The notes under the pieces are model-generated. The model had not been told where the DNA came from. It ran no database searches and saw nothing but the letters and a program-made list of their open reading frames with translations. The translations under genes and the position numbers were made by a program. Of a stretch of DNA of 40,969 nt, positions 11,866 to 37,500 are shown in pieces; within the stretch, counting starts at the first letter, position 1, and each line of letters opens with the position of its first letter. Origin of the DNA: Coriobacteriales bacterium (GTDB lineage Bacteria; Actinomycetota; Coriobacteriia; Coriobacteriales; UBA8131); NCBI GenBank assembly GCA_031272005.1, contig JAISUQ010000029.1:1-40969 (forward strand), read 5' to 3'.

Positions 11866-11912
11866 ACTTAAAATTCTTTAAGTATTATTCGCCCCTTGCC
11901 CCACTTTGTCAA
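11866..11912 (-). promoter_or_regulatory. Candidate sigma-70-type promoter of the FAS operon plus an adjacent 7-4-7 palindromic operator
   Basis: The minus strand reads TTGACA (11912-11907), a 17-nt spacer, then AATAAT (11889-11884). ACTTAAAGAATTTTAAGT follows immediately (11883-11866), with perfect ACTTAAA/TTTAAGT arms. It lies about 60 nt upstream of the acpP ATG. Confidence 0.55.
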
Positions 11913-12268
11913 GTGGGATCACTACAGGCTCTTGAAAACACTCTCCACAGCTACACCGCCAAGGTGTTTGGATACAAAATCGATTTCTTTGCGCGCTGGG
12001 GAAAGGTGTCGAGATGAACGCGACAAAATGTATACCTTTCGTCGCGTATGCACGATAAAACGTAGGGGTGCGTGTTGCGCGGTGCCGCGGGATGAGCCAT
12101 TCCCGGGCTTGCGTGAGAAGCTCGGTGGAAGTGCCGCCGGGATGACACGGTTTTGACATTCTCGCTTGATAAGTTGGGGGTGCGGACAATATCGCTTAGT
12201 AACGGCACAATTCTGAAGTGAGCAATTGTATGGACACCCAACCTGTTATAATCTGGCAAGAAGGAATA

Positions 12269-12484
12269 ATGAAGCAAACAGAGAAATATCAGAACTTGAT
12301 TATCGTAGCTGCTATTGACGGCTATTCGAATAAGCATGGCTTGTCCCCCAGTGATACATTCAAACTATTTCGCAGGTATGATGTCTTTGAGGCTCTCCGT
12401 CAGAGTGCTGACAGCCTGCACACGCAAAGCTTCGACGATAGCGCCGACTTTGCCGAAGACTTCATTGCGAGGATGTCTAAGTGA
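12269..12484 (+). CDS. DUF3791-like small protein (triad 1, first gene)
   Basis: MKQTEKYQNLIIVAAIDGYSNKHGLSPSDTFKLFRRYDVFEAL. A GAAGGA RBS precedes the 12269 ATG. The stop overlaps the next start (GTGA). Confidence 0.65.
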   Translation: MKQTEKYQNLIIVAAIDGYSNKHGLSPSDTFKLFRRYDVFEALRQSADSLHTQSFDDSADFAEDFIARMSK

Positions 12485-12963
12485 CAACATTGCGTCTCTA
12501 TCATGGCTCGAACTGCGATTTTTCTCGTATTGATTTGAACCATTCACGAGACAAACGCGATTTTAGCAAGGGGTTTTATGCAACAACCCTGCGCGAACAA
12601 GCTGAAAGTTGGGCCGCAACAACACATTTGCGCTATGATGGCGAGGGCAAGTTCCTTTACCTGCTCGATTTGAATCTTGACCCAAGCCTTGCAATATTGG
12701 AATTCGATGGTATTACTGCAGATTGGCTGGAGATGGTTAAGGAAAACCGCATCAAAGGTGGTTTGCAACATTCGTACGATATTGTGCGTGGGCCTGTGGC
12801 TGATGACGATACGATGCCGACACTTTCCCTATACGTTGATGGTTTGCTGAGCGTGGAAGCAACTATGCGTCAACTGGAGTATTCCAAGCCCAACGACCAA
12901 GTGTCATTGCATACACCGATTGCCCTGCAAAAGCTGGAATTGGTTGGAAAAGTGCGCTTATGA
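12481..12963 (+). CDS. DUF3990-family protein (triad 1, central gene)
   Basis: GTG start. TLRLYHGSNCDF...RDFSKGFYATT...DIVRGPVADDD is the pattern I recognise as DUF3990. Confidence 0.7.
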   Translation: MTTLRLYHGSNCDFSRIDLNHSRDKRDFSKGFYATTLREQAESWAATTHLRYDGEGKFLYLLDLNLDPSLAILEFDGITADWLEMVKENRIKGGLQHSYDIVRGPVADDDTMPTLSLYVDGLLSVEATMRQLEYSKPNDQVSLHTPIALQKLELVGKVRL

Positions 12964-13199
12964 GCCAACACTATTTCTACAAAGAGAAGAACCTGACTTC
13001 GATTATCCTGCTCAAGACCGAGAAAGTAGTCGAATTGATAGCTGCAAGAGAAGGCATAGACTTCGAGTCGGCGCTGGAGAAGTTCCTGGACTCGAAAACC
13101 TACGAGTCGCTCTGCAACCCAGACACCCTGCTTTGGTCTGAGAGCTCCCCTTTCATCCTGGATGATTACCTGAGAGAGTTGTCGGTTTCCGGCCGTTGA
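12960..13199 (+). CDS. DUF3791-like small protein (triad 1, third gene)
   Basis: ATGA overlap with the DUF3990 gene. KVVELIAAREGIDFESALEKFLDSKTYESL parallels the first gene and the 23619..23876 product. Confidence 0.65.
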   Translation: MSQHYFYKEKNLTSIILLKTEKVVELIAAREGIDFESALEKFLDSKTYESLCNPDTLLWSESSPFILDDYLRELSVSGR

Positions 13200-13278
13200 A
13201 CCAATTGCGCTGCTGGTATACTATGTTAACTTGCGCCGCGAGGCGCTTATCTCCGCTGATTACTCCCTAAGGAGCGCT

Positions 13279-14145
13279 GTGTTTGGTTTAGGTGGATTCG
13301 AGATTGCGATTATCGCGCTGTTCGGATTCCTGATATTCGGGCCGGATAAGTTGCCGCAGATTGCCCGTACCATCGGCCGGGCGATGCGGCAGTTCCGCAG
13401 TGCCCAGGAGCAGATGAACAAGGTCATCAAGGCCGAGGTCTATGACCCTTTGAAGGACATCGAGCCGATTGCCAACCCCTTCGCCGGCCTCAATCTGGAA
13501 GACGCCCTGACCGGCAAGAAGAGCGACAAAGCGGCGGAGAAGAAAGACGACAAGAAAGCCGATAAGCCTGCTGCGTTGAAGTCGGGCGATAAGACCGCTG
13601 GCAAGGCTGGCAGAAGCAAGGCTGGCGACAAGTCCGGTAAAGCCGATACTACAACTGAGGACGCCAAGCCGATTCCGGCTGACGCCATGCAGGCAGCCAT
13701 CGCTGGGCAGGCCAGCAAGGCCAAGGAGGCGGCTGCCAAGTCGGCCAAGTCGGCCAAGGCGGCTGAGAAGCGGGCTGGCGGATCGGCTGGCGCCGGGGCA
13801 GGCGGGTCAGCCACCGCAGGCGGGGCAGCCACCGCAGGCGGAGCGGCTGCTGTCGCGTCTGCCACCACCAACACCACCAGCAAAGCGTCAACTGAGAGCT
13901 TCGCCGAGCGCCGCGCCCGGCTGGAGCGGGAGCACGCCGCTGCCAAGGCGGCCAAGGCTGCCGAAGCAGCCGCAGACGGCGGCGCATCATCTGACACTGC
14001 GTCTGCCGGCGCCGCGCCTGCCAACGCCACCACCGGCGCTGCGACTGCCGCTGCCGCTGCTGGAGCCGCAACTGCCTCAACAGACAGCACGCCTGATGCG
14101 CCCGCAACCGCTTCTGGCTCAGCCGCCGATGGAGGTGGCCGGTAA
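13279..14145 (+). CDS. tatA: Twin-arginine translocase TatA/TatB-family subunit with a ~230-aa Lys/Ala-rich tail
   Basis: GTG at 13279 lies 4 nt after AAGGAG. (M)FGLGGFEIAIIALFGFLIFGPDKLP is the canonical TatA TM-hinge-amphipathic helix. The remainder is low complexity. Confidence 0.85.
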   Translation: MFGLGGFEIAIIALFGFLIFGPDKLPQIARTIGRAMRQFRSAQEQMNKVIKAEVYDPLKDIEPIANPFAGLNLEDALTGKKSDKAAEKKDDKKADKPAALKSGDKTAGKAGRSKAGDKSGKADTTTEDAKPIPADAMQAAIAGQASKAKEAAAKSAKSAKAAEKRAGGSAGAGAGGSATAGGAATAGGAAAVASATTNTTSKASTESFAERRARLEREHAAAKAAKAAEAAADGGASSDTASAGAAPANATTGAATAAAAAGAATASTDSTPDAPATASGSAADGGGR

Positions 14146-20296: not shown

Positions 20297-21100
20297 ATGG
20301 CTATTCAGGAGTACATCAATACACATCAGGTGTTCAACATTGCCGACTTGCGAAGCGGTAACAGCTTAAGCACTACCAATCTCAACCTACTGTCACGTGC
20401 TGTTGCCAATGGCAAGCTTGAGCGAGTACGCAAAGGACTTTACGTTTCGAAGACCGGGCGTTTTGAGGGCGCCGTTGCAGAACCTTACGACGTCGCCATG
20501 GCCGCAGTCGACGATGCTGTATTCTGCTGTCTATCTGCTCTGCAACTGCATGGCGTGCTACACAACACCATTTACTGGACACAGTTTTATACAAGACACC
20601 ATCTGCCTGTCTTCAGCTATGAAGGTCAGAGATACATCCCTATTTATAACAAGAGACAAAACATCGACCTGGATAGAGTCATGACCTTACGCGGCGGCAG
20701 TTATCCTGTAACTTCCAGAGAGCAGACGGTGCTTGATTGCCTGAGTAACGTGAATCGCGCTGCCGGAGCAGAGAATCTCCTGCGCTCTGTTGGAGGATTC
20801 GCCTATTTGGATGTTGCCCAGTTACTCAACCTTGCTGCCAGCTACAGCGCTGGCACACGTGCTCGGCTTGGATGGCTTTTATCTGTTAATAAGCAGATCT
20901 GGAAAGTCAGCGATACTCAACTCTTGAAGCTGCAGACAAGCATCGGTGCAGGGCCATACTATTTTGGCTCAAAACCAACAGCAAGTGCAGCTGGCTCAAT
21001 TGCCCAGTCAGAAGCAGCGCCCAAAACCACCTGGCAACCAACCTGGCGACTCTATCTGCCAACCGAGGAAGAGGAGATGACAGCATGGCTAAACCACTGA
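20297..21100 (+). CDS. abiEi: AbiEi-family type IV antitoxin / transcriptional regulator
   Basis: N-terminal wHTH (LLSRAVANGKLERVRKGLYV). The size and the 16-nt overlap with a downstream nucleotidyltransferase gene are typical of AbiE. Confidence 0.75.
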   Translation: MAIQEYINTHQVFNIADLRSGNSLSTTNLNLLSRAVANGKLERVRKGLYVSKTGRFEGAVAEPYDVAMAAVDDAVFCCLSALQLHGVLHNTIYWTQFYTRHHLPVFSYEGQRYIPIYNKRQNIDLDRVMTLRGGSYPVTSREQTVLDCLSNVNRAAGAENLLRSVGGFAYLDVAQLLNLAASYSAGTRARLGWLLSVNKQIWKVSDTQLLKLQTSIGAGPYYFGSKPTASAAGSIAQSEAAPKTTWQPTWRLYLPTEEEEMTAWLNH

Positions 21101-22035
21101 AGACGACACCCATTGACTTGTCTGGATTCAACCCGTCTGTGGCTAACAAAGTGAAACGCCTGGCGATTATCCTGAGCAGTATAACGCGACACCCTTTCTT
21201 AATGAGCCGAGTTTGTCTGCATGGCGGTACGGCGATAAACCTGTTCCTGCTATCGGCACCCAGATTGTCGGTCGATATAGACTTGAACTATATAGGCACT
21301 GTCGACTATGAAGAAATGTGGGATGAGCGCCCAGCAGTAGAGGAGGCAGTTATGGAAATTGCCTTGGAGCAGGGCTACGCTGTTACGATTGGAAAACAAG
21401 AGCATGCCGGCATGAGTTTCAAACTTCGCTACGAGGATCAGTATGGTGCCGATTTCATAAAAATCGACTTGGATTACCTGAATAGATCACCTCTCCTGTC
21501 GCCAGAAATACGCCAGATAGTTTTGGATGGTCAAGTGATGGCAGCTATTCTGACGAACTCAGCAATAGAACTGATCGGCGGCAAACTCAAGGCGCTGCTG
21601 AGCCGCGTCGTGCCGCGAGACCTTTATGATATCTGTCGTTTAGCAGAGCTATATCCTGCGCTCGTCAGCGATGGAGATGAGACGTTAATGCGACGTATCA
21701 TGATTTACTACTCAGTTCTGTCTGACCCATTCCCGAAGCCATTTGCGGTAGCCTCTCGTTTTCACGCCAAAGAGCGCGAAGTGCAGGACATACTTTATCC
21801 GATGCTCAGAGATGGCGAGCGCCCATTGCTTGCAGATATGATTGCCTGCGCCGAAGATTTCATTGCCATAACAACTACCCCAAAGGACGCAGCAGAGGAG
21901 GAATTCGTAGTAAAGGCTGCCAAGGCGCAACTTGATCCGTCGTTATTGTTTGACGATGCTCCGTCGATACTCCAAGCAGCGCTGGCAGACCCAGCCGCAA
22001 AATGGAAGATGCAGAATTTGGCCAAAGTCGTATGA
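21085..22035 (+). CDS. abiEii: AbiEii/AbiGii-family nucleotidyltransferase toxin (DUF1814)
   Basis: CLHGGTAINLF...RLSVDIDLNY NTase motif, followed by the LLSRVVPRDLYD motif. Confidence 0.8.
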   Translation: MAKPLKTTPIDLSGFNPSVANKVKRLAIILSSITRHPFLMSRVCLHGGTAINLFLLSAPRLSVDIDLNYIGTVDYEEMWDERPAVEEAVMEIALEQGYAVTIGKQEHAGMSFKLRYEDQYGADFIKIDLDYLNRSPLLSPEIRQIVLDGQVMAAILTNSAIELIGGKLKALLSRVVPRDLYDICRLAELYPALVSDGDETLMRRIMIYYSVLSDPFPKPFAVASRFHAKEREVQDILYPMLRDGERPLLADMIACAEDFIAITTTPKDAAEEEFVVKAAKAQLDPSLLFDDAPSILQAALADPAAKWKMQNLAKVV

Positions 22036-22215: not shown

Positions 22216-22689
22216 TTAGCTGGCTAGTTGCTGTAATTGCTCGGTGTTCAGGCGGTAGGTGGTCCAGTCGTCCATGGGTGTGGCTCCCAGGGAGAGGTAG
22301 AAGTCGATGCTGGGTTGGTTCCAGTCCAGGCAGGACCATTCCATGCGGCCGCAACCTTGCTCCAGGGCGCGTTGAGCCAGCTGGCGTAGCAGCCCTTTGC
22401 CCAGGCCATGGCCGCGCCACTGCGGTTGCACAAACAGATCCTCAATGTACAGGCCAGCCTGCCCCAGGAAGGTGGAGTAGTTGTAGAAGTACAAAGCAAA
22501 GCCTACCTCCTGGCCATCCACCAGCGCAAAGGTGGCTTCAGCCAGCTGCTTGTCGAACAGCCACTGCTCCAAGTCTTCTGTGGTGGCCACCACCTTATCC
22601 AGCAGGTGTTCATAGGCCGCCAGCTGCCGGACAAAGTCCAACACCAGCGCCACATCATCCCGCTGTGCCTGTCGATAACTGATTCGCAT
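22216..22689 (-). CDS. GNAT-family N-acetyltransferase (diamine/SSAT-like)
   Basis: The start MRISYRQAQRDD was chosen. The acetyl-CoA motif is VQPQWRGHGLGKGLL. Confidence 0.8.
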   Translation of the reverse strand: MRISYRQAQRDDVALVLDFVRQLAAYEHLLDKVVATTEDLEQWLFDKQLAEATFALVDGQEVGFALYFYNYSTFLGQAGLYIEDLFVQPQWRGHGLGKGLLRQLAQRALEQGCGRMEWSCLDWNQPSIDFYLSLGATPMDDWTTYRLNTEQLQQLAS

Positions 22690-22859
22690 ACCTGCCATTC
22701 TACCGTATTCGATTGTTTGCTCGTTCGCCACGACTGGCAGCTGCCACGACAGGCAGCGACTCCAGGCAGTTCAGTAATGGCGTTCATGGTAGAATGGGGC
22801 AAAACCTGAAGCGTATGCAAACAGGTTGCCACAATGCATTGCGGCAGGAGTTCAAGCGT

Positions 22860-23081
22860 ATGACCGGTAAAGACAACATAGCCACCATGATTAAGGTCGA
22901 GCAACTCGACCTGTTCAAGCAGGAACTTGGTCTTACTTACCGGCAGGCATCGGAGTACTTCGATGAAAACGGCATATGGCAGCTCATCGACGACTGCTAC
23001 GAGGGCTTTCACGTTCAAGGCCCCTGGGCTACCTTTGAGGACATCAACCAGTGCCTGGAAAACCGCAGGCAGAACCAATGA
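22860..23081 (+). CDS. DUF3791-like small protein (triad 2, first gene)
   Basis: VEQLDLFKQELGLTYRQASEYFDENGIWQLIDDCYEGFH parallels the 12269..12484 product. ATGA overlap with the next ORF. The start is uncertain (22860 or the Met 9 codons downstream). Confidence 0.55.
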   Translation: MTGKDNIATMIKVEQLDLFKQELGLTYRQASEYFDENGIWQLIDDCYEGFHVQGPWATFEDINQCLENRRQNQ

Positions 23082-23622
23082 TAGCCGACCAGAAAAACCT
23101 GACGTTGTACCACGCCAGCTTCATGGAGGTCAAAAAGGTAGATTTGTGTCTTTGCGGCAAACGCAGCGACTTCGGGCAGGGCTTTTATCTTACCACCAGC
23201 AATACGCAGGCTAGAAAGTTTTCAGGACTGCTGTAGGCAAAAGCGGGCGCACCCAGCGCTCCGGTTTTGTGAATCAGTATCTGTTCGCAGGTCTCGCAGA
23301 GCTGAACATTCTGGAGTTTGCATCTGCAGATAAAGACTGGCTCAACTGCGTCTGCGAATACCGCAGGAGGCGGAAAGCTGCAGAAGTCGAGCTGCCTTGG
23401 GATGTTTACGACGCAATGATCGGCAAAATTGCCAATGACGACACGATGGCTGTCATCAATGCATATCTCGGTGGCATACTCGGCTCATACGGCTCTGATG
23501 AAGCCGTCAGAATTACGATTGCCGCCCTCAAACCGGAGCGGCTGGAAGATCAGATTTGTCTGAAATCGTCAGCAGCCGTCAGCAGGCTGCAGTTCGTCAG
23601 TTCTGAGGAGGTGCTGATATGA
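23078..23622 (+). pseudogene. DUF3990-family gene disrupted by a frameshift
   Basis: Frame 1 gives MIADQKNLTLYHASF...DFGQGFYLTTSNTQARKF, then stops at 23234-23236. The homologous continuation (YLFAGLAELNILEF...KIANDDTMAVINAYLGG) is in another frame, open from 23215. The shift maps to the AAAGTTTT tract at 23215-23222. Confidence 0.7.
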
Positions 23623-23876
23623 CGCCAGACAAATACGATGCCGCTGCTCGCATCACTGTGAACATGGTGGCCGAGGAACTCTCGGTAAGGCACGGGTGGA
23701 GTCTGAATGAGGCTCTGTCGCGCATGACCAAAGCCGATCTTTATCCATCTCTGACCAGCAGCAGCACCAAACTTTGGATGGAGAACCCCCTCGATTTGGC
23801 AGACCTGTTCGACAAAGAGTTTGTCGGCGACGAGCTGACTATCGCCAACTTCTTCTACGGTGTTCCTGCTAACTAG
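23619..23876 (+). CDS. DUF3791-like small protein (triad 2, third gene)
   Basis: ATGA overlap with the end of the disrupted DUF3990 gene. VNMVAEELSVRHGWSLNEALSRMTKADLYPSL parallels 12960..13199. Confidence 0.6.
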   Translation: MTPDKYDAAARITVNMVAEELSVRHGWSLNEALSRMTKADLYPSLTSSSTKLWMENPLDLADLFDKEFVGDELTIANFFYGVPAN

Positions 23877-24174: not shown

Positions 24175-24816
24175 TTGATTGTAGAAAAGGTGCCGTTTGC
24201 ATTCATTCTAAGCAGAGAAAAGGTGCGAAAAATTATAGTAAATTGTAAAAACGGTGCCAAGAAAGGTGCTCGCGGACGAGACTATGACTCTGCGCTCAAT
24301 TGGCTGTCAGCCTCCGAGATGGTTTTACAATGCAACTCGGTAGAAGCTCCCAAAATGCCATTGAAGGGCTATCTGGATGCAGGGGTCTTCAAGCTGTTCT
24401 TGAACGACCCCGGTTTGCTGGGTAATCTTGCGGATATTCGCTATCCAGATATCATGCTGAATAAGGCCTTCGAATACAAGGGCATGCTTACCGAAAGCTA
24501 TGTTGCAGGTCAACTGGCTGCAACAGGTATCCCTCTCCATTATTGGCGTGATGAGAAGAATAACGAGGTTGGCTTCCTGATCCAGACTGATGACTGTGTC
24601 ATCCCTGTTGAATGTAAATCCGGAACAAACAAAGTGAGTGCAAGCTTGAAGAGATACCAGGAGAAGTTTCGGCCGCCTTGGGTCATCAGGCTGATGGGAA
24701 ACAACTTCGGCTTCGTTAACAACGTCAAGACCATACCGCTCTATGCGGCATTCGCCGTGGCAGAACTTACTCGGCCAAGTCTGGAGTTACCTGATTTGAC
24801 AGGCCAGCGTTGGTAG
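24175..24816 (+). pseudogene. C-terminal fragment of an AAA_14/DUF4143-type ATPase gene (N-terminal ATPase domain missing)
   Basis: The product has only the DUF4143-like end (FKLFLNDPGLLGNL...SYVAGQL...LHYWRDEKNNEVGFLI...IPVECKSG). No P-loop region appears upstream in any frame. The usual EVDF acidic residue reads EVGF here. Confidence 0.5.
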
Positions 24817-24833: not shown

Positions 24834-26252
24834 TCAGCCAGCGAACAAATCGTCCAGGGTTATTTGGGACTGGATGTTATTGGCGAAGGCGTTGTGAGTT
24901 AAGCCATAGGTGGTAATCATCGTCTGGTGGATGGCGCTGCGAGTTGCGGTTTCGGAGATAAAGCGCTGGCGCCTGGCGGCCAAGTGTTCAGCATAGTCGG
25001 CGTCGATGCTGAATTCGGAGGTGGTGTATTTAATCTCGCAAAGGTTGATCACCTGGTCTTTACGGTTAATCACCAAGTCGATTTGCAGGGGAGAAGCACT
25101 GTTGGTTGAACGCCAGGAGCAGGCATTGGTGATAACCCCGGTGATTCCCAGGCAGGCCTTGATTTGTGGGATATGTGCCAGACAAAGGCGCTCAAAGGCA
25201 TGTCCGCACCAATTGCCGTGGGCGGGGTGCAGCAGGTAGTTGGTCCAATAATGCTCGTCCTTGGTGCGATTGCCTTTGACATAGCGCAGGTAATAGAGGC
25301 TGAAAAAGTCAACGAGGTGATAGTACTCACCATTGCGGCGTTTGTTATAGTCATCAATAGTGGAGATGAAGCCGCATTGCTCCAGTTCGCGCAGTGTACC
25401 AGACAAGGCCCCACCATCCGATATGCCACAGGCCTTGATGATCTCATGACGGCTCAAACCTGTGTTTTGAGTGCCCAGAGCTTCGATAATCCGGATATGA
25501 TTGCCTGCCGAGCGATACAGTGAGCGAAACAGGCGGTCGAACTCATTTTTCAGTGGGGCATTCTTTGCAAAGAACAAAGCATCAACGTTTTGACTCAAGC
25601 TCAGACCCTTATTCAGCAGTTCCAGATAATAAGGTATGCCGCCGAGAATCATATAGGCTTCGGCCAATTGATGGCGATTGAATACTACCCCGTGGCTGCG
25701 GCAGAATTCTTCGGTTTCTGCGAGGGTAAACGGCTCAAGTGAGATGCTGTGAGTAACTCGATTATGCAAGCCGCCGTAGCTGTCGATGAGGTTTTTAATC
25801 ATCCAGGAGGCAGCACTGCCGCAAACAATCAGCATGATGTCTGGGCGAGATGAGGCAAAAGAATTCCAGAAGTGTTCCAGGGCTGGCAAGAAGCCCGACT
25901 TGCGGGTGTCAAACCAGGGCAACTCGTCGATGAAGATGATCTTCTTCTCAGTGGTAGTCAGGGATGTGAGCTGTGACTCCAGTTGAGTAAAGGCATGCAA
26001 CCAACTGCGGGATGCCTGAATGTCGCCGGTAAAATACTTGTCAAGTGCCGCATCAAAGACTGCCAACTGGTCAGATTTGGAAACATTGGCTTCGGCAGTG
26101 ACGTAAAAAGTGAAGTGGTTGTTGAAATGCTCTTTGACCAGGTAAGTTTTACCAATACGCCGCCTGCCGTAAATTGCTAAGAAGACAGGACGCCCAGACA
26201 AAGCACACTCCTGCAGCAACTGCCGCTCGGCCTTTCTGCCAGTAATCTCCAT
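24834..26252 (-). CDS. AAA+ ATPase (Arch_ATPase-like) with wHTH and a C-terminal DUF234/PD-(D/E)XK-like domain
   Basis: MEITGRKAE...FLAIYGRRRIGKTYLV Walker A and IIFIDELPW Walker B. The C-terminal QIDLVINRKDQVINLCEIKYT is a D...E-x-K nuclease-like motif. Confidence 0.75.
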   Translation of the reverse strand: MEITGRKAERQLLQECALSGRPVFLAIYGRRRIGKTYLVKEHFNNHFTFYVTAEANVSKSDQLAVFDAALDKYFTGDIQASRSWLHAFTQLESQLTSLTTTEKKIIFIDELPWFDTRKSGFLPALEHFWNSFASSRPDIMLIVCGSAASWMIKNLIDSYGGLHNRVTHSISLEPFTLAETEEFCRSHGVVFNRHQLAEAYMILGGIPYYLELLNKGLSLSQNVDALFFAKNAPLKNEFDRLFRSLYRSAGNHIRIIEALGTQNTGLSRHEIIKACGISDGGALSGTLRELEQCGFISTIDDYNKRRNGEYYHLVDFFSLYYLRYVKGNRTKDEHYWTNYLLHPAHGNWCGHAFERLCLAHIPQIKACLGITGVITNACSWRSTNSASPLQIDLVINRKDQVINLCEIKYTTSEFSIDADYAEHLAARRQRFISETATRSAIHQTMITTYGLTHNAFANNIQSQITLDDLFAG

Positions 26253-26760
26253 ACTGCTCCAGTTCCTCTCGCAACAACAGGCGTAAGTCAGCAAGCTAAG
26301 CTACTTCGTAGTTTATCATATAAGTCGCTGAAATATTGATAATATTGGCCAATTCAGCGGATAAAAATAGCACAGCAATCTCAGAATATCACATAAAATG
26401 CCTGAAATGCCGCGAGTAAAACAAATATATCCCGCTGAAATAATTTAAAAAGGCGTATATCAGCGAAGAATATTAGCAATTACAAGTCCGTATGGCATCA
26501 ACACACACTTACGGATTCTGGTATCATTCGGATTGCCAAAACCTCATGGACTTCATTGCGAGGTCCTCATATGAACGTACGCGCAGAATGACATCTGCCT
26601 TCTAAAGACGTGCATATGAGCTCTTTGAGGTGTTTTGGCGACCATAGGTGGATGTCCTTCTTCTCGGGCCGCTGATGCTCGTCGAACACGAATCCACCAA
26701 TTGTGTAATTCTCTGGCAGTGCAGGTTTCATGTTGTAAAGCGGGCAAGGAGCATTGTTCG

Positions 26761-27840
26761 CTACCTGCGGCTCTTTTCTATCCAGAGTTTGAAGAATGGA
26801 TCCTCCAGAATGTAACTTTCAAGTTTTACGACCAGCCCCTTTTTGACCAGCGCTTTGAGGCTGCTGTAATAGGTGCTGTTTTTTGCAGGTTGTATATTGG
26901 CTGCGCCCAGCGCCAGCGAGACCAGTATACCCTGCTGGTTCTTATTCAGCTGGTTCCAGAGTTTTTCGTAGTTGTTGTCCTGCTCAGCTACGATGCTGCT
27001 GCATACGAGGGGCAACGTGTCGACATCGTAGTCGGTGTTTCTCAGGAATTCGAAGCACTTGTAAGACAGGAGTTGCGTGTAGTAAGGATGTGACTCGGTG
27101 AAAGCGACGATGTCTCTGGCAATCAGCGCCGCATGCTTGCTGATGTCTTGAAGGCCGCCTGCGACAAAGGATTCAAAATCGCTTTTTGGTATTCGCGCCA
27201 GGCGCATCAGCAGCCCAAAATGATAGAAAGGTGATTTCTTGGAGTTGAATATCTGCTCCATCATCGATTCTTCACTGCCGATGAAAACGTAATTGATGTT
27301 TTGCTGCATCTGCATGACGGATCTGAGCTTCTTGAACAACTGTGCATCGATGCTGGCTGCTTCCTGAAACTCATCGAGAATCACGATCGGCCTCTTCTTG
27401 GCGGTCGCCAACTTCTCTATCAAGGTGAATACATCTTCAAGGGAGGAGGTACTCTCCTTACCGATAGGCCTGAAATACACCGAGATAGCCCCGGTAGCCA
27501 TGTCGGTCTCGAAGGCCGGGCTGCCCCTCAACCCGGCCAGGTGTCGGCGGATGTTCTCAAATTTGTAGGCCTTCAGCACTTCTTTAAGCAGTTGGTTCGC
27601 AAAATCCGTAACACTGGTGGCGCTTTGCAGGTTCATATAAATCAGCGGACGTTTCGTACTCCTGGCGACATTGAGCGCCAGCGAGGACTTCCCATAGCGT
27701 CTTGGGCTGATGAGTACGATATGGTTGGCGCTGTTGAGCGCTTGCTTCAGCTCAGCTTTTTCGGTTGTGCGATCAGTGAAGAACGGGCCATCCACAACCA
27801 CTCCAAAGCGAAACGGGTTCAAAGCTGATGCCCGGCTCAT
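26761..27840 (-). CDS. AAA+ ATPase (Arch_ATPase-like) with a C-terminal wHTH and no recognisable nuclease domain
   Basis: NPFRFGVVVDGPFFTDR...VLISPRRYGKSSL Walker A and IVILDEFQE Walker B. The C-terminal YYSSLKALVKKGLV is wHTH-like. Confidence 0.7.
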   Translation of the reverse strand: MSRASALNPFRFGVVVDGPFFTDRTTEKAELKQALNSANHIVLISPRRYGKSSLALNVARSTKRPLIYMNLQSATSVTDFANQLLKEVLKAYKFENIRRHLAGLRGSPAFETDMATGAISVYFRPIGKESTSSLEDVFTLIEKLATAKKRPIVILDEFQEAASIDAQLFKKLRSVMQMQQNINYVFIGSEESMMEQIFNSKKSPFYHFGLLMRLARIPKSDFESFVAGGLQDISKHAALIARDIVAFTESHPYYTQLLSYKCFEFLRNTDYDVDTLPLVCSSIVAEQDNNYEKLWNQLNKNQQGILVSLALGAANIQPAKNSTYYSSLKALVKKGLVVKLESYILEDPFFKLWIEKSRR

Positions 27841-28023
27841 GCATTACTCCTTGCTTTTCGATAGGGGCTACGAAAATAATAATAGCAGAAAAATACGTAT
27901 ATATATACGAAAAAATATGTAGTTACGAAACTGGCATTCAAATGATCCCACGAAACCTTAGTTTGATCCCAGTTAAATAGAGGAACCTTGACCCATTTAA
28001 AAACCCAGACTCAGCTAGTGAGC

Positions 28024-28100
28024 ATTACAACGTATCGCAAAGAATTACAACGTATCGCAAATTATACAGAGAATTACAAAATATACAGAGAATCGCATGT
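28024..28100. repeat. Iteron-like tandem repeats (about 19-20 bp period)
   Basis: ATTACAACGTATCGCAAA occurs at 28024-28041 and 28044-28061. ATACAGAGAAT occurs at 28064-28074 and 28083-28093, interleaved with GAATTACAA. Confidence 0.85.
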
Positions 28101-28155
28101 TGTGTTGATTCGCGTATGTCGCGCTTCGCCCGGGCGGGCGGACCAGCCGGTGGGG

Positions 28156-28182
28156 CTAGTCCGCCTAGTCCGCCTAGTCCGC
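28156..28182. repeat. Perfect 3 x 9-bp tandem repeat CTAGTCCGC containing the rtcB stop codon
   Basis: Copies lie at 28156-28164, 28165-28173 and 28174-28182. The third copy encodes the last two codons and the stop of rtcB (GCG GAC TAG on the minus strand). Confidence 0.9.
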
Positions 28183-29382
28183 TGCCTTGAAGTTGTAGAT
28201 GGGGCGGATGCGCTGGAGGATCTCAGCGGTGGGGCCAATCTGGCTGACGATGCTGTCCAGGCTCTTGTAGGCCATCGGCGCCTCGTCCAGGGTGGCCCGG
28301 GCCACGCAGGTGGTGAAGATGCCAGCCATCTGGGCGCGGTATTCATCCATCGTCAGTTGGCGCTTGGCGGCCATCCGGCTCATCAGGCGTCCGGCGCCAT
28401 GCGGGGCGGAGCAGTTCCACTCGGCGTTGCCCTTACCGGTGCAGATCAGCGAGCCGTCGCGCATGTTGATGGGCACCAGCAGCTTCTCTCCCGCCTTGGC
28501 CGACACGGCACCCTTGCGCAGAATCATCGCTTCGGTGTCGATGTAGTTGTGGATGGTGGTGAAGGCATCCACCCGGGTCAGCCCCAGGCCGCTGAGCATG
28601 ACATCGACCATCGCCTGGCGGTTGAGCACAGCGAAGCGCTGGATGATGCGCATATCGTGGAGATAATCCTCGAACAGCTGCCCGGTGGCGTAGGCCAGGT
28701 CCTTGGGCAGCGTCACCCGTGCGGCGGCTTCGGCACGCAGGCGTTGGATGGTCTCCGCAATCTCCTGCTGGCGACCGGCAGCCTTGAGTTGCTCGATGGC
28801 CTCGGCCAGCTGGTGCTTGGCACTGCCACCCAGCGAGTTGAAGGCCTCGGCCTGGTAGTGCTTGGCCACCTCGTTGCCCAGGTGGCGGCTGCCGGAATGC
28901 ACAACCAGGAACAGCCGACCGTCGTCGCTGCGGTCCACCTCGATGAAGTGGTTGCCGCCGCCCAGCGTGCCGATGCTCTTGCGGGCGCGGTCGAGGTTCA
29001 TCTCCTTGACGCAGCGCAGTTGGTCAAGGTCAATCTCGTCAATCAGCTCATGCGGTTGCTTGCGTACGCTGAAGCCGCTGGGGATGCTTTGGCGGATAAG
29101 TGCGTCCAGCTCGGCGAAGTCGATCTCATGCTCGGCCAGCTCGACTGTCTCCATGCCGCAGCCGATGTCCACGCCTACCATGCCAGGCACGATTTTATCG
29201 GAGATGGTCATGGTGGTGCCGATGGTGCAGCCCATGCCGGTATGGACATCGGGCATGATGCGGATTTGGCTATCGGCGAACTCCGGCTGGTTGCAAACGG
29301 TTTGGATCTGCTGGCGAGCCGAGTCTTCCAGCTCGTCGGTGTAGCAGATTGCTGTGTTGTGTGTGCCTGTAATCTCAATCAT
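28174..29382 (-). CDS. rtcB: RNA 3'-phosphate/5'-OH ligase RtcB
   Basis: 402 aa. MPDVHTGMG, GGGNHFIEV, HSGSRHLG and the nucleotidylation-site SAPHGAGR motifs. A GAAGGAG RBS is present. Confidence 0.92.
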   Translation of the reverse strand: MIEITGTHNTAICYTDELEDSARQQIQTVCNQPEFADSQIRIMPDVHTGMGCTIGTTMTISDKIVPGMVGVDIGCGMETVELAEHEIDFAELDALIRQSIPSGFSVRKQPHELIDEIDLDQLRCVKEMNLDRARKSIGTLGGGNHFIEVDRSDDGRLFLVVHSGSRHLGNEVAKHYQAEAFNSLGGSAKHQLAEAIEQLKAAGRQQEIAETIQRLRAEAAARVTLPKDLAYATGQLFEDYLHDMRIIQRFAVLNRQAMVDVMLSGLGLTRVDAFTTIHNYIDTEAMILRKGAVSAKAGEKLLVPINMRDGSLICTGKGNAEWNCSAPHGAGRLMSRMAAKRQLTMDEYRAQMAGIFTTCVARATLDEAPMAYKSLDSIVSQIGPTAEILQRIRPIYNFKAAD

Positions 29383-29420
29383 CTCTTTCTCCTTCTCAGT
29401 GGCTGCGCCACTTCGTCATT

Positions 29421-29507
29421 TGGTGGGTCGGGGTGGAATTGCACCACCGGTGTTTCTGATGTCACGGGTTTACAACCCGCTGCCTTCGCTGCTCGGCGCA
29501 CCGACCC
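29421..29507 (-). tRNA. tRNA-Tyr(GTA) candidate, class II (87 nt, CCA encoded), with non-canonical features
   Basis: Perfect 7-bp acceptor stem GGGTCGG/CCGACCC, A73 and CCA. Anticodon arm GCGGG-TTGTAAA-CCCGT. T arm GGTGG-TGCAATT-CCACC has G where U55 is expected. By hand fold there is an extra nucleotide before the D stem and a weakly paired long variable arm. Confidence 0.6.
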
Positions 29508-29511
29508 AGAT

Positions 29512-29588
29512 TGGCACTCGCGGCTGGACTCGAACCAGCGACACGCGGCTTCGTAGGCCGCTGCTCTACTCCGCTGAGCTACGCGAGT
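29512..29588 (-). tRNA. tRNA-Arg(ACG), 77 nt, CCA encoded
   Basis: Hand-folded cloverleaf: ACTCGCG-TA-GCTC-AGCGGAGTA-GAGC-A-GCGGC-CTACGAA-GCCGC-GTGTC-GCTGG-TTCGAGT-CCAGC-CGCGAGT-G-CCA. Confidence 0.88.
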
Positions 29589-31614: not shown

Positions 31615-31680
31615 TGTTGTTACGAGTGTTTGCTGGTCTATAATTGGCATATTGTTGACGGGGCGCTTTCTGGTTTATGG

Positions 31681-34557
31681 ATGGGTGTTATGGCTGGTGG
31701 TTTGGCAGGGATTCTTGAGGCTGTGGCGGCGCTGCGGAGCGGGGCGGCGGCGGCAACTGTGTCGGTTTTGGTGCCGGATGGGGGGCGGGAGCGGGCGCTG
31801 AAGGCGGCTTTGGCTGGTGGCGAAGTTGGTGCTGGAGGGGTAGCCGGCGTGGCCGGGGCGGCCGGCGAGGTTGGCGCTGGAGGGGCAGTCGGGGTAGCAG
31901 GGGTGGCCGGGGTAGAGGTCGTCACCTGGGGGCATTACTTTCAAGAGGCCTGGCAGCTGTATGGCGATGGGCGCACGGTGGCGCCGGAGCCATTGCGGCG
32001 GCGTTACCTGGCGCTGGCCTATCAGGATTTTGCGGAGACGGAGCGGGCTGGCTGGCGCTTGCCCACGCATCTGGGCGAGTTGAGTGTCGGCTTCCGGCGC
32101 GAGGTCTGCTATCTACTGGATTTTGCCTACGGGCAGCCAGCGTTGATGGCAGCTGTTGAGCAGGCTGGCGGGCAGGCCAAACCATCCGAGGTGCCACTGT
32201 TTGCGCTGCTCAACCGCTATTTTACGCTGCTGGACGCGGATGGCTTCATCGACCCGGTGGATGCCGAGCAGCAACTGGCCGCTCGGCTGCGCAATCAGCG
32301 GCTGCTGTTGGACGGCTTCGTCGAGCTGTCGCCGCGACAGGCCGGGATAATCGCAGCGCTGCAGGCCAACAACCAGGTGCACTGGGACGCTGCGGCCTGT
32401 GCAACAAACTCCCAAACCATCGCCGAAGCGTTGGACAACTTCACCGGCGAGGTGCGCCTGGGCGAGGCAGTTGGCCCGCTGGCCGAGGTACCGCTGCTGG
32501 CCGATCTTATCCAGCAGGCCATCGCCAGCGGTTGCCAGCCCGGTAGCATCGCCGTGCTGACGACCGCTGAGCATGACGCCGGCTCGGCGCTGCTGGACGA
32601 GCTTATCCGCCGGGAGATACCCTTCGCAACCAGCGTCAGCGTGCGCTTGGCGGCCACACCGTTGGGCACAGCGTTCCTGGCACTGCTCAAGGCGCTGCAG
32701 CCGGATGGCGTGCCGGCTGCCAGGCAGCTTTCCGAGCAGCTGTTCAGTCTGTTGAGCAGCCCATATGCCGGCATATCGCGGGAGAAGGCCTGGAGAGCGC
32801 AGCGGGATTGGCGCAAGCAGCGCGTGCTCGACCCAGTGCAACTGCTTGCCTCCGCCCAGGCCGCCTTGGGGGAGAGAAGCGAACTGGTCAGCCTGGCACG
32901 CAGCGTGACTGGCGAGTTGGTAGGCGAGGCCTGGCTCACAGCGCAACGGGAGCTGCTCAACCAGTTGTTCGCCAACGGGCGGAGCAGTAACCGCCGCAGC
33001 GAGGCCGAGTTGCAGGATGACTTCGCGGTGCTCCAGGCCGCCTACGCCTTTGCCGAGCAGGTCGCCGCAACGCGGGGATACTGCTCGTTAGCGGATTTGG
33101 CGGAGATACCGGTGACCCTGAATCGCTCCTACCAACCATCTGCAGCTGACTCCTGCAGCGGGTCTGTGCAGTTGCTGCCACCGCAAGACCTCAGTTATCA
33201 AAGCTATGATGCTATCATCATCGGCAGTTTGAACGCCGATAGCTTCCCGATGAGTCAACGCGAACGCCCGCTGGACGGGCTGCTGACCCGCATGCTTGGC
33301 CAACCGGTCAAGCCCCGCACGGCCGACGTTCAGCGCACATTGCTGGCCCACATGCTCCAGGCGGCCGGCCGGCAGTTTGTCGCCTATCGAATCACCACCG
33401 AGGCCACAGGCGACAAAAGCCGCTCCAGCGCGCTTTGGGATGAGCTGCTGGACGCCCTGGCCAAGGCTGGCCTCCAGCCAGCCACCAGCCGTATCTACGA
33501 GTACGACTACATGCTGCAACAGGCCAACCCGGCCACCCTGGGTACCGCCCGGCGTTTCGACCGCGGCATCTTGGCTGCCAGCCCATCGGCCGCCGATCCA
33601 TCGGCCGCCGATCCATCGGCCAACAGCGACGCAGGCCAACTCGCCAGCTTGATGCCGGCGGTCTTCTCGGTCACCGAACTGGAGGCTTACCTGGCCTGCC
33701 CCTACAAGTGGTTCGTCAGCAGGCGGCTGAAAACCGATGAGATCGACAAGAGCCTGGATGCCCGGGACAAGGGCACTTTTTGCCATGAGGTACTCAAGCA
33801 GTTCTACAATAGCTTGATAGCACAAGGCCATCAGCGGGTGACCGAGGATAACCTCCCGCAGGCGCTGGAGCTGCTGCCGGAGACCTTCCGGCAAACGCTG
33901 GAGGCAGCCCTGGCGGGTGCTGGGGCGTGGGAGGGTCATCCTCTGGTTTTGGCCAACCCCAGCGAGCAGGCGGCCATCAACAGCCTGTTGCCCGGCCTGC
34001 TCGCGCTCATCGAACGTGACGCCAGCTTCCTGCCGGGCTATCATCCAGCCCACATGGAGTACAGAATCAGCAAAGAGGAGCCCATTGAATATGCAGGCGT
34101 GCAGGTCAACGGGATAGTCGACCGTATCGACGTCAACGCCGATGGGCGGGCGGTGGTGCTGGACTATAAGATGCCCAAAAGCCTCAGCGACTACGGTATG
34201 AAAAAGGGCGCCACCTTGCCTATGTATCTACAAGGCGCCATCTATGCCCGCCTGATACAGCGGCAGTTGGAGCTGGTCCCCACGGCGGCTCTGTATCGCT
34301 CCTACACCGCTGTCTCAACGCGGGGAGTCTATTCCAGCGCGCTGATCGACCCGGAAGACAAAGCCCTCCTCAGCGCGCAGGGGCTGGGCAAATATGATGC
34401 CAGCAGCGATTTCTCCGCTTTATTAGATGCGGTGGAGGAGAAGGTGGCGACGGCGATGGAGCGGTTGCAGGCCGGCGACATCGCGCCGGCACCGGCATAT
34501 CAGAAGGCCTGTAGCTATTGCCCGGTTGCGACCTTCTGCCCGGAGAGGAGGGGCTGA
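31681..34557 (+). CDS. addB: AddB/RexB-like helicase-nuclease subunit (PD-(D/E)XK nuclease with Fe-S cysteines; no recognisable P-loop)
   Basis: C-terminal VNGIVDRIDVNADGRAVVLDYK nuclease motif. The cysteines ACPYKW plus CSYCPVATFC (C-x2-C-x5-C) match the AddB iron-sulfur pattern. It is paired with a UvrD/RecB-type partner. The start is uncertain (31630 TTG, 31681 or 31690 ATG). Confidence 0.75.
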   Translation: MGVMAGGLAGILEAVAALRSGAAAATVSVLVPDGGRERALKAALAGGEVGAGGVAGVAGAAGEVGAGGAVGVAGVAGVEVVTWGHYFQEAWQLYGDGRTVAPEPLRRRYLALAYQDFAETERAGWRLPTHLGELSVGFRREVCYLLDFAYGQPALMAAVEQAGGQAKPSEVPLFALLNRYFTLLDADGFIDPVDAEQQLAARLRNQRLLLDGFVELSPRQAGIIAALQANNQVHWDAAACATNSQTIAEALDNFTGEVRLGEAVGPLAEVPLLADLIQQAIASGCQPGSIAVLTTAEHDAGSALLDELIRREIPFATSVSVRLAATPLGTAFLALLKALQPDGVPAARQLSEQLFSLLSSPYAGISREKAWRAQRDWRKQRVLDPVQLLASAQAALGERSELVSLARSVTGELVGEAWLTAQRELLNQLFANGRSSNRRSEAELQDDFAVLQAAYAFAEQVAATRGYCSLADLAEIPVTLNRSYQPSAADSCSGSVQLLPPQDLSYQSYDAIIIGSLNADSFPMSQRERPLDGLLTRMLGQPVKPRTADVQRTLLAHMLQAAGRQFVAYRITTEATGDKSRSSALWDELLDALAKAGLQPATSRIYEYDYMLQQANPATLGTARRFDRGILAASPSAADPSAADPSANSDAGQLASLMPAVFSVTELEAYLACPYKWFVSRRLKTDEIDKSLDARDKGTFCHEVLKQFYNSLIAQGHQRVTEDNLPQALELLPETFRQTLEAALAGAGAWEGHPLVLANPSEQAAINSLLPGLLALIERDASFLPGYHPAHMEYRISKEEPIEYAGVQVNGIVDRIDVNADGRAVVLDYKMPKSLSDYGMKKGATLPMYLQGAIYARLIQRQLELVPTAALYRSYTAVSTRGVYSSALIDPEDKALLSAQGLGKYDASSDFSALLDAVEEKVATAMERLQAGDIAPAPAYQKACSYCPVATFCPERRG

Positions 34558-37500
34558 TGGCTATCGAAGGACTCTCAAAGGCGCAAAACGAAGCTGCCGA
34601 GACCCTCAACAAACCGCTGTTCATCCAGGCCGGCGCCGGAACCGGCAAGACCTACACCCTGACCAAGCGGCTGGCCTATGCCCTCTCGCCGGCCAGTGGC
34701 GTGGCTTGCGGGCAACCGGGGCAGCCCTATCTGCCAGATACCAGCAACTTCATGACCATCACCTTCACCGAGAAGGCCACTGACGAGCTGCTCTCGCGCA
34801 TCCGCTCGACCCTGCGGCAAGCCGGGCTGGAGGAGCAGGCTCTGGCGGTGGACAGCGCCTGGGTCTCAACCATCCATGGCATGTGCCGCCGGCTGCTGCT
34901 GGACAACATCCTGCAATCCGGCATCGACCCGGATGCCGATGTGCCGCCGGACATCCTGTCCGACTATTGGCTGAATCAGCTGTTCAACCAGCTTTTGGAC
35001 AGTCACGCTGAGGATGCCGAGATAACCAGGCTGCTCAACGAGTATGGTGATTCCTGGCTGCGTAACATGGCCGTGCAGGTGGCCGAGCGTCTGGCGGAGC
35101 TGCCCAACGGGGTAGCCGATGTGGAGCTGTGCCAGCCTGAGCACTCGCCATCAGAGTTGTTGCGGATGCTGCTTACGGAGACCAACAGGCTTATCCGGGA
35201 TATCGAAGGATTGGAGAAGCCGGGGAAGAAGGACATCGGCAACATCGCCCTGCTCCAATCCGTCTCTGCTGAAGCCCAAATAGCTTTGGATAGCCCCGGC
35301 GACCGCCTGTATCTTGATGCCTACCAGTTGGTCAATGAGTTGAATATCGCTGCTTCCAATAACTGCTTCGATGAGATTGTCGATTCAATCGGCGCTATCC
35401 AACTTGAAGCCATAGCTGGCAAGCAGCATGACGATTTGCAGGTACTGCTGGGCTTCGCCGCCGAGCTGGGTGATATATACAGCGAGTTTCGCCGCCAGCA
35501 TGCCATGATGACCCATGACGAGTTGATGGTGCAGGCTTATCGCCTGTTGACCGGCGATGATGAACTGGCCGCCGCCTATCGCCAGCAGTTTCGCCTGGTG
35601 ATGGTCGATGAGTTCCAGGACACCGATGCTCTGCAGGTCTCAATCATCGACCAACTGGTGCCGCCAGACAAACACAGTCTGGCCACGGTTGGCGACCTGC
35701 AGCAATCCATCTACGGCTTCAGGGGCGCAGACCCGGACGTCTATCTGGCGCAACGTGACGCAATGCAGGAGCTGGACGCCAAGCTGGTGAAGCTGGACGA
35801 GAATTATCGCTCGCACGACCAGATACTGCGCTTTGTGGATGCACTGTTTGGCCAGAGCCAGGTGTTCGGCAGTGAGTTGGTTTCGCTGGCCAGCAAGCGC
35901 CGCGGGCCCGAGCAGCCCAAACTTCCCGCCGACCAGCCTCGGGTGCGCCTGTTGGTTTCGACCGGTCAATCCATGCCAACTGATGACGGCAAGAGCAAAG
36001 ACCCTGACTTGGCCGTTTTGCGTCCCCAGCTGGCGGCGATGATCGCCGATGAGTTCATCCGCTTGCGTGATGATTATGGCTTCCGCTCCAAAGAAATGGC
36101 CTTGCTGCTGGGCAAGACGACAAATGCAGACGTCTATATCGACGCTTTCAGCGACCGCGGCTTGAATTCAATGGTGGTTGGAGGTTCGGGTTTCTACAAG
36201 GCGTGCGAGGTGGGCATTCTCATCCAATACCTGGCGGCTTTGGCCAATCCCTATGACGAACTGGCCCTGCTGAGTACGCTGACCTCACCGTTGTTCAATT
36301 TGACTGACGACGAATTGTTGACGGTGGCTTCTGTAAAAGGTGAACTCTATTCTAGCTTATTACAAAGTGAACAAGATAGTATAGCACACGCTGCTGCTGC
36401 CTTCCAAGCTGCTCAGTCTCGAATCGACCATCTCAGTGCTGCCGAAGTCTTGCTGGCCAGCTTGCACGACAGCGGCTGGGAACAGGTGCTGCTGGGTAGC
36501 GGCACCATAGGCCAGTCTGCATTGGCCAATATCCACAAACTGATTCGCCTGGTGGCCGAATATCAGTCCAATAGCCAAGCCAGCTTCAATGCAACTGCCG
36601 CCTGGTTCACCAACATCTTGCAGGCCGAAAGCTCAGCACCCAAAGAAAAACCCGGCTTGCTGCAGGGCGCAGACAGCGATGCTGTCAACATCATGACCAT
36701 CCACGCCTCCAAGGGGTTGGAGTTTGCTGTGGCTGCGGTGGCCGAATACGATTTGAGTAACAGGGGCGGCGGCAAGAGCAATGCTGTGTTGTACTCGCAG
36801 AGGGTAGGGGAGAAACTATATTTGGCTATTGAGCCGAAGCCTTCTCCCAAGTATGGCAATGAAAAAAGCAGCACCAATTACGGCAAAGCCATCAAAGCCA
36901 ATCGTGACCAGATCGGCGAGCAACTTGGTTCGCCCGAGCGGGCGTCAAGCTGCCTGGAGTTGTATTGCTATCTGCGAAGTTTGGCGATAGCCAAAGAACT
37001 GCCAGAATGCCAGCGCAAATTCTATGTTGCCTGCACTCGCGCACGTGATGTGTTGTTGGTGGGAGCCTGTGATAAGACTCTGTTGGCGAAACCCAACAAT
37101 CCGCGCAAAGCCATCGCCGGCGACATCCAGCAGGCCTTCTTCCCTGCTGGGTTGCCCACGTCCAGCGCGGAGTTCGCCTTTGGTGGTGCTGCGGGCTATC
37201 GCGGAGCCTGGGATGTTCGCGTGCTGCCGGCTGGCGCTGCGGGCAGCGGCGCAGATGGAGAGGGAAGCGCAGAGGACGACTTCGATAACGAGCAGGGCTC
37301 CGATGACGGGCTGCGCTTGCAGACGGTGCCATTCAGGGACATCATCGCCCCCATGCTGCCGGCTGGCGAGGATCTCTGCCTGCGTCTGGAGCGCGGCCAA
37401 CGCCTGGCGCCAGCCAGCTACTCCTACAGTTCGCTGGCCAGAGCGCATGAGCCGGATTCCGACATTGCCCACATCGCGCTGACGGCCCGCGAGGAGAAGC

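Follow-up and report, generated by a model that had tools for sequence, protein, structure and literature searches.

A three-gene cassette with a predicted ADP-ribosyltransferase-fold protein in a Coriobacteriales genome, matching the candidate system PDC-M13

What do three short, overlapping genes of unassigned function do between a fatty acid synthesis-type operon and tatA in the genome of a Coriobacteriales bacterium? The genes, hereafter called A, B and C, are located on contig JAISUQ010000029.1 (assembly GCA_031272005.1), of which positions 1 to 40,969, hereafter called the window, were analysed. Gene B is predicted to encode a protein with the ADP-ribosyltransferase (ART) fold, of the H-Y-[E/D/Q] type, and we propose with moderate confidence that the locus is a self-contained, horizontally acquired, tripartite ART conflict module, either toxin-antitoxin-like or abortive-infection-like. 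The three genes are the following.

12269-12484, plus strand: gene A, 71 amino acids, DUF3791
12481-12963, plus strand: gene B, 160 amino acids, DUF3990, predicted ADP-ribosyltransferase fold
12960-13199, plus strand: gene C, 79 amino acids, unnamed family with a conserved LWxES..F..D motif

An earlier description of this DNA, made from its letters and open reading frames (ORFs) and hereafter called the sequence-only reading, had reported three same-strand ORFs of these lengths joined by 4-nt overlaps. Their coordinates and both overlaps, GTGA at 12481-12484 between A and B and ATGA at 12960-12963 between B and C, were confirmed.

Gene B belongs to the Pfam family DUF3990 (PF13151), which it matched with 142.4 bits (E 1.1e-41) over model positions 2-151 of 152; the Pfam gathering cut-offs are 32.2 bits for PF13151, 25 bits for DUF3791 (PF12668) and 31 bits for ART-PolyVal (PF18760). 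DUF3990 is a member of the Pfam ART clan (PMC7955679), a grouping which the sequence-only reading had suggested and which is upheld by the clan listing and by Foldseek matches to ART toxins and ART-PolyVal. A match to ART-PolyVal was also found over gene B residues 4-46, at 20 bits and thus below the cut-off, and several gene B homologues have precomputed PF18760 matches. The Pfam search of gene B gave no match to DarT or Tox-ART-HYD1 and none to RES at E up to 1. NCBIfam contained no model matching A, B or C, and in PHROGs only gene B gave a match, a weak one (E 6e-6) to phrog_4700, which has no assigned function.

The AlphaFold model of gene B, made from 47 homologues, had a mean pLDDT of 92.6. 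When it was compared with the PDB by Foldseek, a check that had been suggested earlier, the best matches were ART-fold toxins. Only RES toxins of Xre-RES systems were found below E 1e-3, and the three best matches, including 9r35/6gw6 (E 3e-4, probability 1.0), were all RES toxins, followed by the VPA0770 toxin and then by the cholix, diphtheria and pertussis toxins. The TM-scores were 0.44-0.48 against solved ARTs and 0.44-0.57 with the ART-PolyVal matches included. Among predicted viral structures (BFVD), ART-PolyVal proteins dominated and were the top matches. No solved structure was found in a PDB sequence search with the gene B profile.

Residue conservation was assessed in an alignment of 47 gene B sequences, reaching down to 29% identity, in which 15 columns were invariant, including H8, G9, D27, G31, F32, Y33, T35, D100, G104, D109 and Q140. 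The motifs LRLYHGS and DFSKGFYATT, by which DUF3990 had originally been recognized, are present in gene B, and H8 and Y33, put forward on that occasion as candidate NAD-site residues, are correctly numbered, invariant in all 47 homologues and retained here as predicted NAD-site residues. H8 is located within the first strand (residues 2-10) and Y33 within the second strand (32-35) of the model, which is the layout of an H-Y-[E/D/Q] ART. The likeliest third catalytic residue would be D100, since it starts the strand after the helix that follows beta-4, the usual seat of the catalytic glutamate.

Gene A matched DUF3791 with 44.6 bits (E 1.4e-11), and it matched a hidden Markov model (HMM) built from the proteins found upstream of DUF3990 in related loci with E 1e-28. 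Gene C, on the other hand, had no Pfam hit at E up to 1 and no NCBIfam match. A single-sequence search with gene C in an index of 5.8 billion proteins returned only gene C itself, for which reason a profile query was used; this C-type profile retrieved 1217 related clusters, all of them unannotated and none with a Pfam domain. The AlphaFold model of gene C (pLDDT 93.2) consists of a short beta-hairpin followed by four helices. Foldseek found no significant match to it in the PDB (best E 3.4), and a PDB sequence search with the C profile gave no match.

Only one of 36 C-family members matched DUF3791, below threshold (E 0.008), and the C HMM weakly touched the A domain of a fusion protein encoded by the Bacteroidales plasmid pMMCAT (i-E 0.0035). 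Profile-profile comparison of the A and C families (hhalign) gave probabilities of 12%, 25% and 35% (P 4e-4 to 2.5e-3); the alignment was collinear over the full length, and A and C may be distant paralogues. The proposal that both flanking proteins are of DUF3791 type holds for gene A, whose score is well above the 25-bit cut-off, but not for gene C, and with no Pfam hit for C and an A/C profile probability of 12-35% the label DUF3791-DUF3990-DUF3791 is not established. No Pfam hit to a helix-turn-helix (HTH), ribbon-helix-helix or AbrB domain was obtained for A or C, gene A being judged from sequence alone.

The HMMs of PADLOC identified gene A as PDC-M13A (E 4.2e-9) and gene B as PDC-M13B (E 4.5e-41), and gene C matched the PDC-M13B/C models (E 8e-11 to 6e-9); gene B also matched PDC-M10A and, weakly, PDC-M42A. 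Membership of PDC-M13 was judged by matches of neighbouring genes to the A, B and C HMMs of this system. The cassette is thus already catalogued as a candidate, PDC-M13, and hence is not new to databases. The PDC entries are 145 computational candidates derived from genes within BREX, DISARM and type I restriction-modification (RM) loci (Payne et al. 2024, bioRxiv 10.1101/2024.01.29.577857), and in rumen genomes PDC-M13, with 3324 hits, ranks among the commonest PADLOC calls (PMC13356809).

Conservation of the cassette was studied in the 80 nearest genomic loci (45-58% identity), in which A, B and C were located by HMM search of all six frames. The loci come from Coriobacteriales, Synergistales, Clostridia, Bacteroidia, Spirochaetia, Fibrobacteres, Planctomycetes, Propionibacteriaceae and Desulfovibrionaceae, and the order A-B-C is kept in essentially all of them. 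Separate A, B and C genes in this order were found in 57 rows, A fused to B in 24 and B fused to C in 2, counts which include the two cassettes of the window and L081, a duplicate contig of the window; A-B fusions thus make up 24 of about 84 cassettes (29%). More A-B and B-C fusions were present among library representatives. The remaining pairing, a C-A fusion, precedes B on pMMCAT as a 149-amino-acid "DUF3791" protein. Where A and B are separate, their genes overlap in 48 of 57 cases, in 31 of these by 4 nt, and among 81 B/C junctions 53 overlap. Because all three pairwise fusions exist and translational coupling is found throughout the family, there is strong indirect evidence that A, B and C act as one complex.

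ORF-based neighbour calling had given many loci without A or C, which the six-frame HMMs showed to be fusions or start-codon artefacts. Split genes of apparent 'ABBC' order in L067 and L071 proved to be spurious weak domain hits, and only the second gene B of the window, described below, is truly split. Some Spirochaetia carry tandem double DUF3990 cassettes with permuted small genes (B-C-A-A-B-C; L069:4815-5261, L079:4599-5765), an arrangement that reflects local duplication and reshuffling of the module. With the DUF3990 profile 9567 representatives were found at 50% clustering, and the locus of the window is an ordinary member of this very large family.

A second cassette is present at 22860-23876, about 10 kb from the first, with both ATGA overlaps kept and the following genes.

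22860-23081, plus strand: gene A2, 73 amino acids, Pfam DUF3791 (43.6 bits, E 3e-11), with an in-frame ATG at 22860
23078-23622, plus strand: gene B2, DUF3990 split over two frames, 23078-23236 and 23215-23622
23619-23876, plus strand: gene C2, 85 amino acids, C-family HMM E 6e-5, PADLOC PDC-M13C E 1.4e-7

The two pieces of B2 appear as two tblastn segments in different frames, both matching Pfam DUF3990 (HMM positions 1-42 and 50-157), and the break reads as a deletion of 1 nt in an A-run at about 23215-23217. A2 and C2 are intact and the frameshift is confined to B2; loss of B alone is what a cassette with B as its harmful component would be expected to show, and it fits a harmful enzyme. 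Because protein identity between the two cassettes is just 31-37% or so, cassette 2 is taken to be a divergent, separately acquired paralogue. The sequence-only reading, which had noted a decayed second copy 10 kb away, was thus right about the second copy, but not about its being a decayed duplicate, only B being broken.

Cassette 2 lies within a low-GC island of about 8 kb (approximately 20.2-28 kb; GC 0.44-0.55 over 20.0-28.2 kb), which also contains the following genes.

20297-22035, plus strand: AbiEi and AbiEii genes (Pfam AbiEi_4 and AbiEii), at the start of the island
22216-22731, minus strand: GNAT gene
24175-24816: DUF4143 fragment without the ATPase half
24834-26294 and 26761-27840, minus strand: two ATPase_2/AAA genes

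The combination of AAA_14 and DUF4143 resembles, in the PADLOC scheme, the candidate PDC-S01. Genes for tRNA-Tyr and tRNA-Arg are found on the minus strand at 29421-29588, about 1.3 kb beyond the island, and may mark its integration site. They overlap the end of a plus-strand ORF of 522 amino acids (27988-29556) that had no Pfam hit and is probably partly spurious.

The immediate neighbours of the 80 loci, 142 proteins in all, were surveyed. A NADAR gene was found in 6 of the 80 loci, always directly 3' of C and always with an A-B-fused cassette, and a microbial PARG was the immediate neighbour in 2, so that about 8 of 80 loci (approximately 10%) adjoin one or the other. HsdR, the type I restriction enzyme, flanks 4-5 loci together with specificity and methylase subunits, and some cassettes are inside such loci. 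The second ring of neighbours consisted mostly of transporters and metabolic genes, with a few PDC-S01 genes (AAA_14 and DUF4143), mad genes and integrases. Relatives of DUF3990 were present in 82 plasmid records, 28 of them conjugative, and in 73 IMG/VR contigs, mostly together with A and C. On a 28-kb Clostridiaceae plasmid, CP026603, a triad of 76, 161 and 76 amino acids directly follows parA. The cassette of pMMCAT (Bacteroides plasmid, NZ_CP072253.1; L083:4555-5483) adjoins an IS4 transposase, a phosphoribosyltransferase-SLOG pair and a HipA toxin-antitoxin pair; this block recurs on many Bacteroidales plasmids about 98 kb in size.

Clearly a mobile unit, the cassette is often found near conflict genes; in most genomes, as in the window, it is a solitary insertion amid ordinary genes. 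Its association with defence islands is real, though modest. An accessory or defence-type character, as had been suspected, is supported by the PDC-M13 matches, by plasmids, viral contigs and type I RM loci and by the AbiE genes of the island, but it does not extend to the surroundings of most loci, which are housekeeping; likewise, the neighbourhood survey gave recurrent HsdR, NADAR and PARG neighbours alongside a mostly housekeeping context.

Two arrangements in related genomes stand out as observations in their own right. In Treponema (L010, L013, L014 and L019, e.g. L013:3696-6700) the A-B-C cassette is located between gyrB and gyrA on the same strand, in a place where these two genes are expected to be adjacent, and either a shared ancestral insertion or a link with DNA topology could account for this. 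In Lachnospiraceae of the genera Blautia, Sellimonas, Anaerostipes and Mediterraneibacter (L050, L051, L053, L054, L060, L076 and L077) the order is ligase, A-B fusion, C; NADAR follows C in L051, L053, L054, L076 and L077, and in L051, L053 and L054 it is followed by a gene encoding a 148-amino-acid LPD11 protein, a polyvalent-protein-associated type. Here the module seems to exist as a variant of four or five genes.

The GC content of cassette 1 is 0.45-0.49 (about 47%), compared with 0.62-0.68 in both flanks, and is thus about 17 points below that of the host, in agreement with the AT-richer patch noted earlier. The placement of the cassette between a fatty acid synthesis-type operon and tatA was also correct: the genes for AccC, BCCP and ACP (the acetyl-CoA carboxylase/ACP operon) are upstream on the minus strand, and those for TatA, TatC, a CobW-type GTPase and topoisomerase I are downstream. 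The patch and the putative expression signals in it are as follows.

11900-13230, no strand: low-GC patch with the cassette, GC about 0.45-0.52 in the composition profile, the core sequence around it being 0.62-0.68
12244-12252, plus strand: TGTTATAAT, a perfect extended -10 promoter-like element, read by eye, 17 nt before the start of gene A
12260-12265, plus strand: GAAGGA, Shine-Dalgarno-like, just 5' of gene A, read from the sequence

A consensus promoter scan upstream of gene A reported no plus-strand site, TGTTATAAT being missed because its -35 hexamer is poor. Both TGTTATAAT and GAAGGA are within the low-GC patch, so that the signals for its expression would seem to come with the cassette. 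No convincing direct or inverted repeat, integrase or tRNA adjoins cassette 1; a pair of 23-nt repeats with 78% identity (at 12154 and 13331) was considered as a flanking repeat and looks like chance. A relative with a cassette-free ACP-tatA junction was also sought, and the metagenome TatC relatives found were just 55% identical and not syntenic. Since no syntenic empty site was obtained, horizontal insertion of cassette 1 is suggested by composition alone.

The TatA protein of the window (13231-14145) is unusually long, 304 amino acids; its TatA domain of 50 residues is followed by some 230 residues in which Ala, Lys, Gly and Ser abound, and the local GC of this tail region is about 0.70. 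Further along, at 31630-38129, two large overlapping genes have the look of an AddB/AddA-type helicase-nuclease pair, one encoding 975 amino acids with a PD-(D/E)XK nuclease domain and the other 1203 amino acids with UvrD helicase and PD-(D/E)XK domains.

How, then, would a tripartite ART conflict module of this kind work? Gene B would bind NAD+ via H8 and Y33 and ADP-ribosylate an essential macromolecule, so that growth stops. A nucleic-acid base would be the most probable target, given that NADAR and PARG genes recur beside the cassette and that NADARs reverse base ADP-ribosylation. A and C would be small, helical, non-enzymatic partners kept in fixed proportion to B by translational coupling; the three would assemble as one complex in which B is kept inactive or gated, to be freed by a trigger, for instance when a phage infects the cell or the element is lost. 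In this scheme we infer that B is catalytic and toxic, which target it has, and that A and C inhibit it or serve as sensors. In a tentative extension, for which we have low confidence, A and C could be ancient paralogues of one small helical fold without a solved relative that clamp the ART as a sensor-effector, and the cassette would represent a new tripartite immune or addiction class from which phage attack or loss of the element would release a nucleic-acid-modifying ART; every pairwise fusion would then be tolerated because the three always act as one particle. If this were true, few uncharacterised conflict modules of gut and rumen anaerobes would be commoner than the cassette.

Several observations weigh against a conflict module. 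In agreement with the statement of the sequence-only reading that these families have no experimentally assigned function, no report of an activity or phenotype was found in the literature for DUF3990, DUF3791 or PDC-M13. The TM-scores of the gene B model to solved ARTs are modest, and D100, D109 and Q140, any of which may be the third catalytic residue, are all invariant. No NADAR or macrodomain gene was found among the neighbours of the window cassette (ACP, TatA), and NADAR, where present, may be the true antitoxin, A and C then having another role. A-B fusions in 29% of cassettes fit a labile antitoxin poorly. Most related cassettes lie amid housekeeping genes; the cassette is directly downstream of the NAD-dependent DNA ligase gene, ligA, in eight Lachnospiraceae loci and is bracketed by gyrB and gyrA in several Treponema genomes, contexts which could point to a physiological role. 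The frameshift in B2 might, moreover, be an error of metagenome assembly.

Alternative explanations for the cassette differ mainly in what B would do once active. The RES toxins that are the three best PDB fold matches of B, like MbcT, degrade NAD+ (PMC6436930), and NAD+ depletion is a common mechanism of abortive infection; B might accordingly be an NAD+-destroying glycohydrolase or phosphorylase of the RES/MbcT kind that depletes NAD+ when freed from A and C. We regard this as unlikely, since B has H-Y instead of R-E-S and no Pfam RES hit at E up to 1, its nearest named sequence relative is ART-PolyVal, and the NADAR or PARG genes beside about 10% of the loci point to a removable ADP-ribose adduct. 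Regulation or repair without lethality is another explanation: B would reversibly ADP-ribosylate DNA, RNA or a protein of DNA metabolism, with A and C as specificity subunits, as in mycobacterial DarTG regulation or KptA-type RNA end processing. Such a role would suit the gyrB/gyrA and ligase contexts and the mostly housekeeping neighbours, A-B fusions would suit a permanent subunit better than a labile antitoxin, and DarT-dependent DNA ADP-ribosylation is reported to be regulatory in Mycobacterium tuberculosis (PMC12170906). It is nevertheless improbable in view of the patchy spread over many phyla at 45-59% identity, the low GC compared with the host, the occurrence on plasmids and viral contigs, the use of the domain as an Rhs toxin and the inactivation of the enzyme alone in cassette 2; the KptA-type R-H-R-R signature of Tpt1/KptA was not seen in the gene B alignment.

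It would be more improbable that B is an offensive or anti-defence tool of mobile elements, acting like ART-PolyVal by modifying host components for establishment of the element, with the chromosomal copies as remnants. The window cassette, an insert of 1 kb, is not surrounded by element genes, its proteins are small and standalone and lie outside polyvalent proteins, and a unit with strict A-B-C coupling and with fusions has the look of a self-regulated one, not of an injected effector. These features have to be set against the closest named viral fold relatives of B, which are ART-PolyVal proteins, the LPD11 gene that follows NADAR in three loci, the relatives on conjugative plasmids and viral contigs, and the proposal that polyvalent ARTs are early-infection effectors (PMC9503650).

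ART-fold toxins with dedicated neutralisers are an active field, to which this cassette adds two small partners, mostly without a hydrolase. If it were known what the cassette targets and what A and C do, two DUF families and one unnamed family would gain a function, and a candidate defence system that is often reported would be put to the test. To our knowledge, every characterised ART toxin system with a dedicated neutraliser (DarTG, DarT-NADAR, YarT-YbiA, RES-Xre, ParST) has two components.

Among characterised systems, DarT-NADAR, DarTG and YarT-YbiA have in common with the cassette a small H-Y-[E/D/Q] ART-fold protein and a compact operon, and a NADAR or PARG gene stands beside some related cassettes. 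NADARs are proven antitoxins of DarT1 and YarT that remove ADP-ribose from guanine (PMC11543638; PMC11125620), and YarT of YarT-YbiA is a small H-Y-E ART, extremely toxic and rescued only by the linked NADAR (PMC11125620). DNA bases are the substrate of DarT and, by inference, of YarT, and the adduct is taken off again by NADAR or macrodomains (PMC11543638, PMC11125620). These systems, however, have two components including a hydrolase, whereas the window cassette has three, without a hydrolase gene and with two small helical proteins. RES-Xre and MbcTA also pair an ART-fold toxin with a small partner, and RES toxins are the best solved-structure matches of the gene B model; they differ in the R-E-S active site and NAD+ degradation, B having H-Y and TM-scores of just 0.44-0.48, and the Xre antitoxin has an HTH, none being detectable in A or C. 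Since no Pfam hit to RES, Xre or DUF2384 was obtained for the cassette proteins, the likeness to RES-Xre is in fold only.

ART-PolyVal (PF18760), the nearest named relative of gene B in both sequence and fold, sits inside very large multidomain proteins, whereas B is a standalone protein of 160 amino acids with dedicated partners. DUF3990 itself is the variable toxic tip (Rhs5-CT) of Serratia Rhs5, where it forms the C-terminal domain and has a downstream immunity gene (PMC4524185), and Photorhabdus Tre23, an Rhs ART of H-Y-D type, ADP-ribosylates 23S rRNA (PMC8661411). Both are secreted, delivered and matched by a single immunity protein, whereas the cassette has no delivery domain and two partners.

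In a type II toxin-antitoxin system a DNA-binding domain would be expected in the antitoxin, and none was detected in A or C. This, together with the frequent A-B fusions, weakens the reading as a classical system with a labile antitoxin and argues against it, and a three-subunit, auto-inhibited complex fits better. A precedent for such an auto-inhibited complex is offered by CapRel-type defence proteins, in which toxin and antitoxin are fused. PDC-M13 has the same three-gene composition, is matched by both cassettes of the window and shows nothing different in kind; relative to the characterised ART modules, what is new is the three-part make-up, with two predicted non-enzymatic partners without a known fold.

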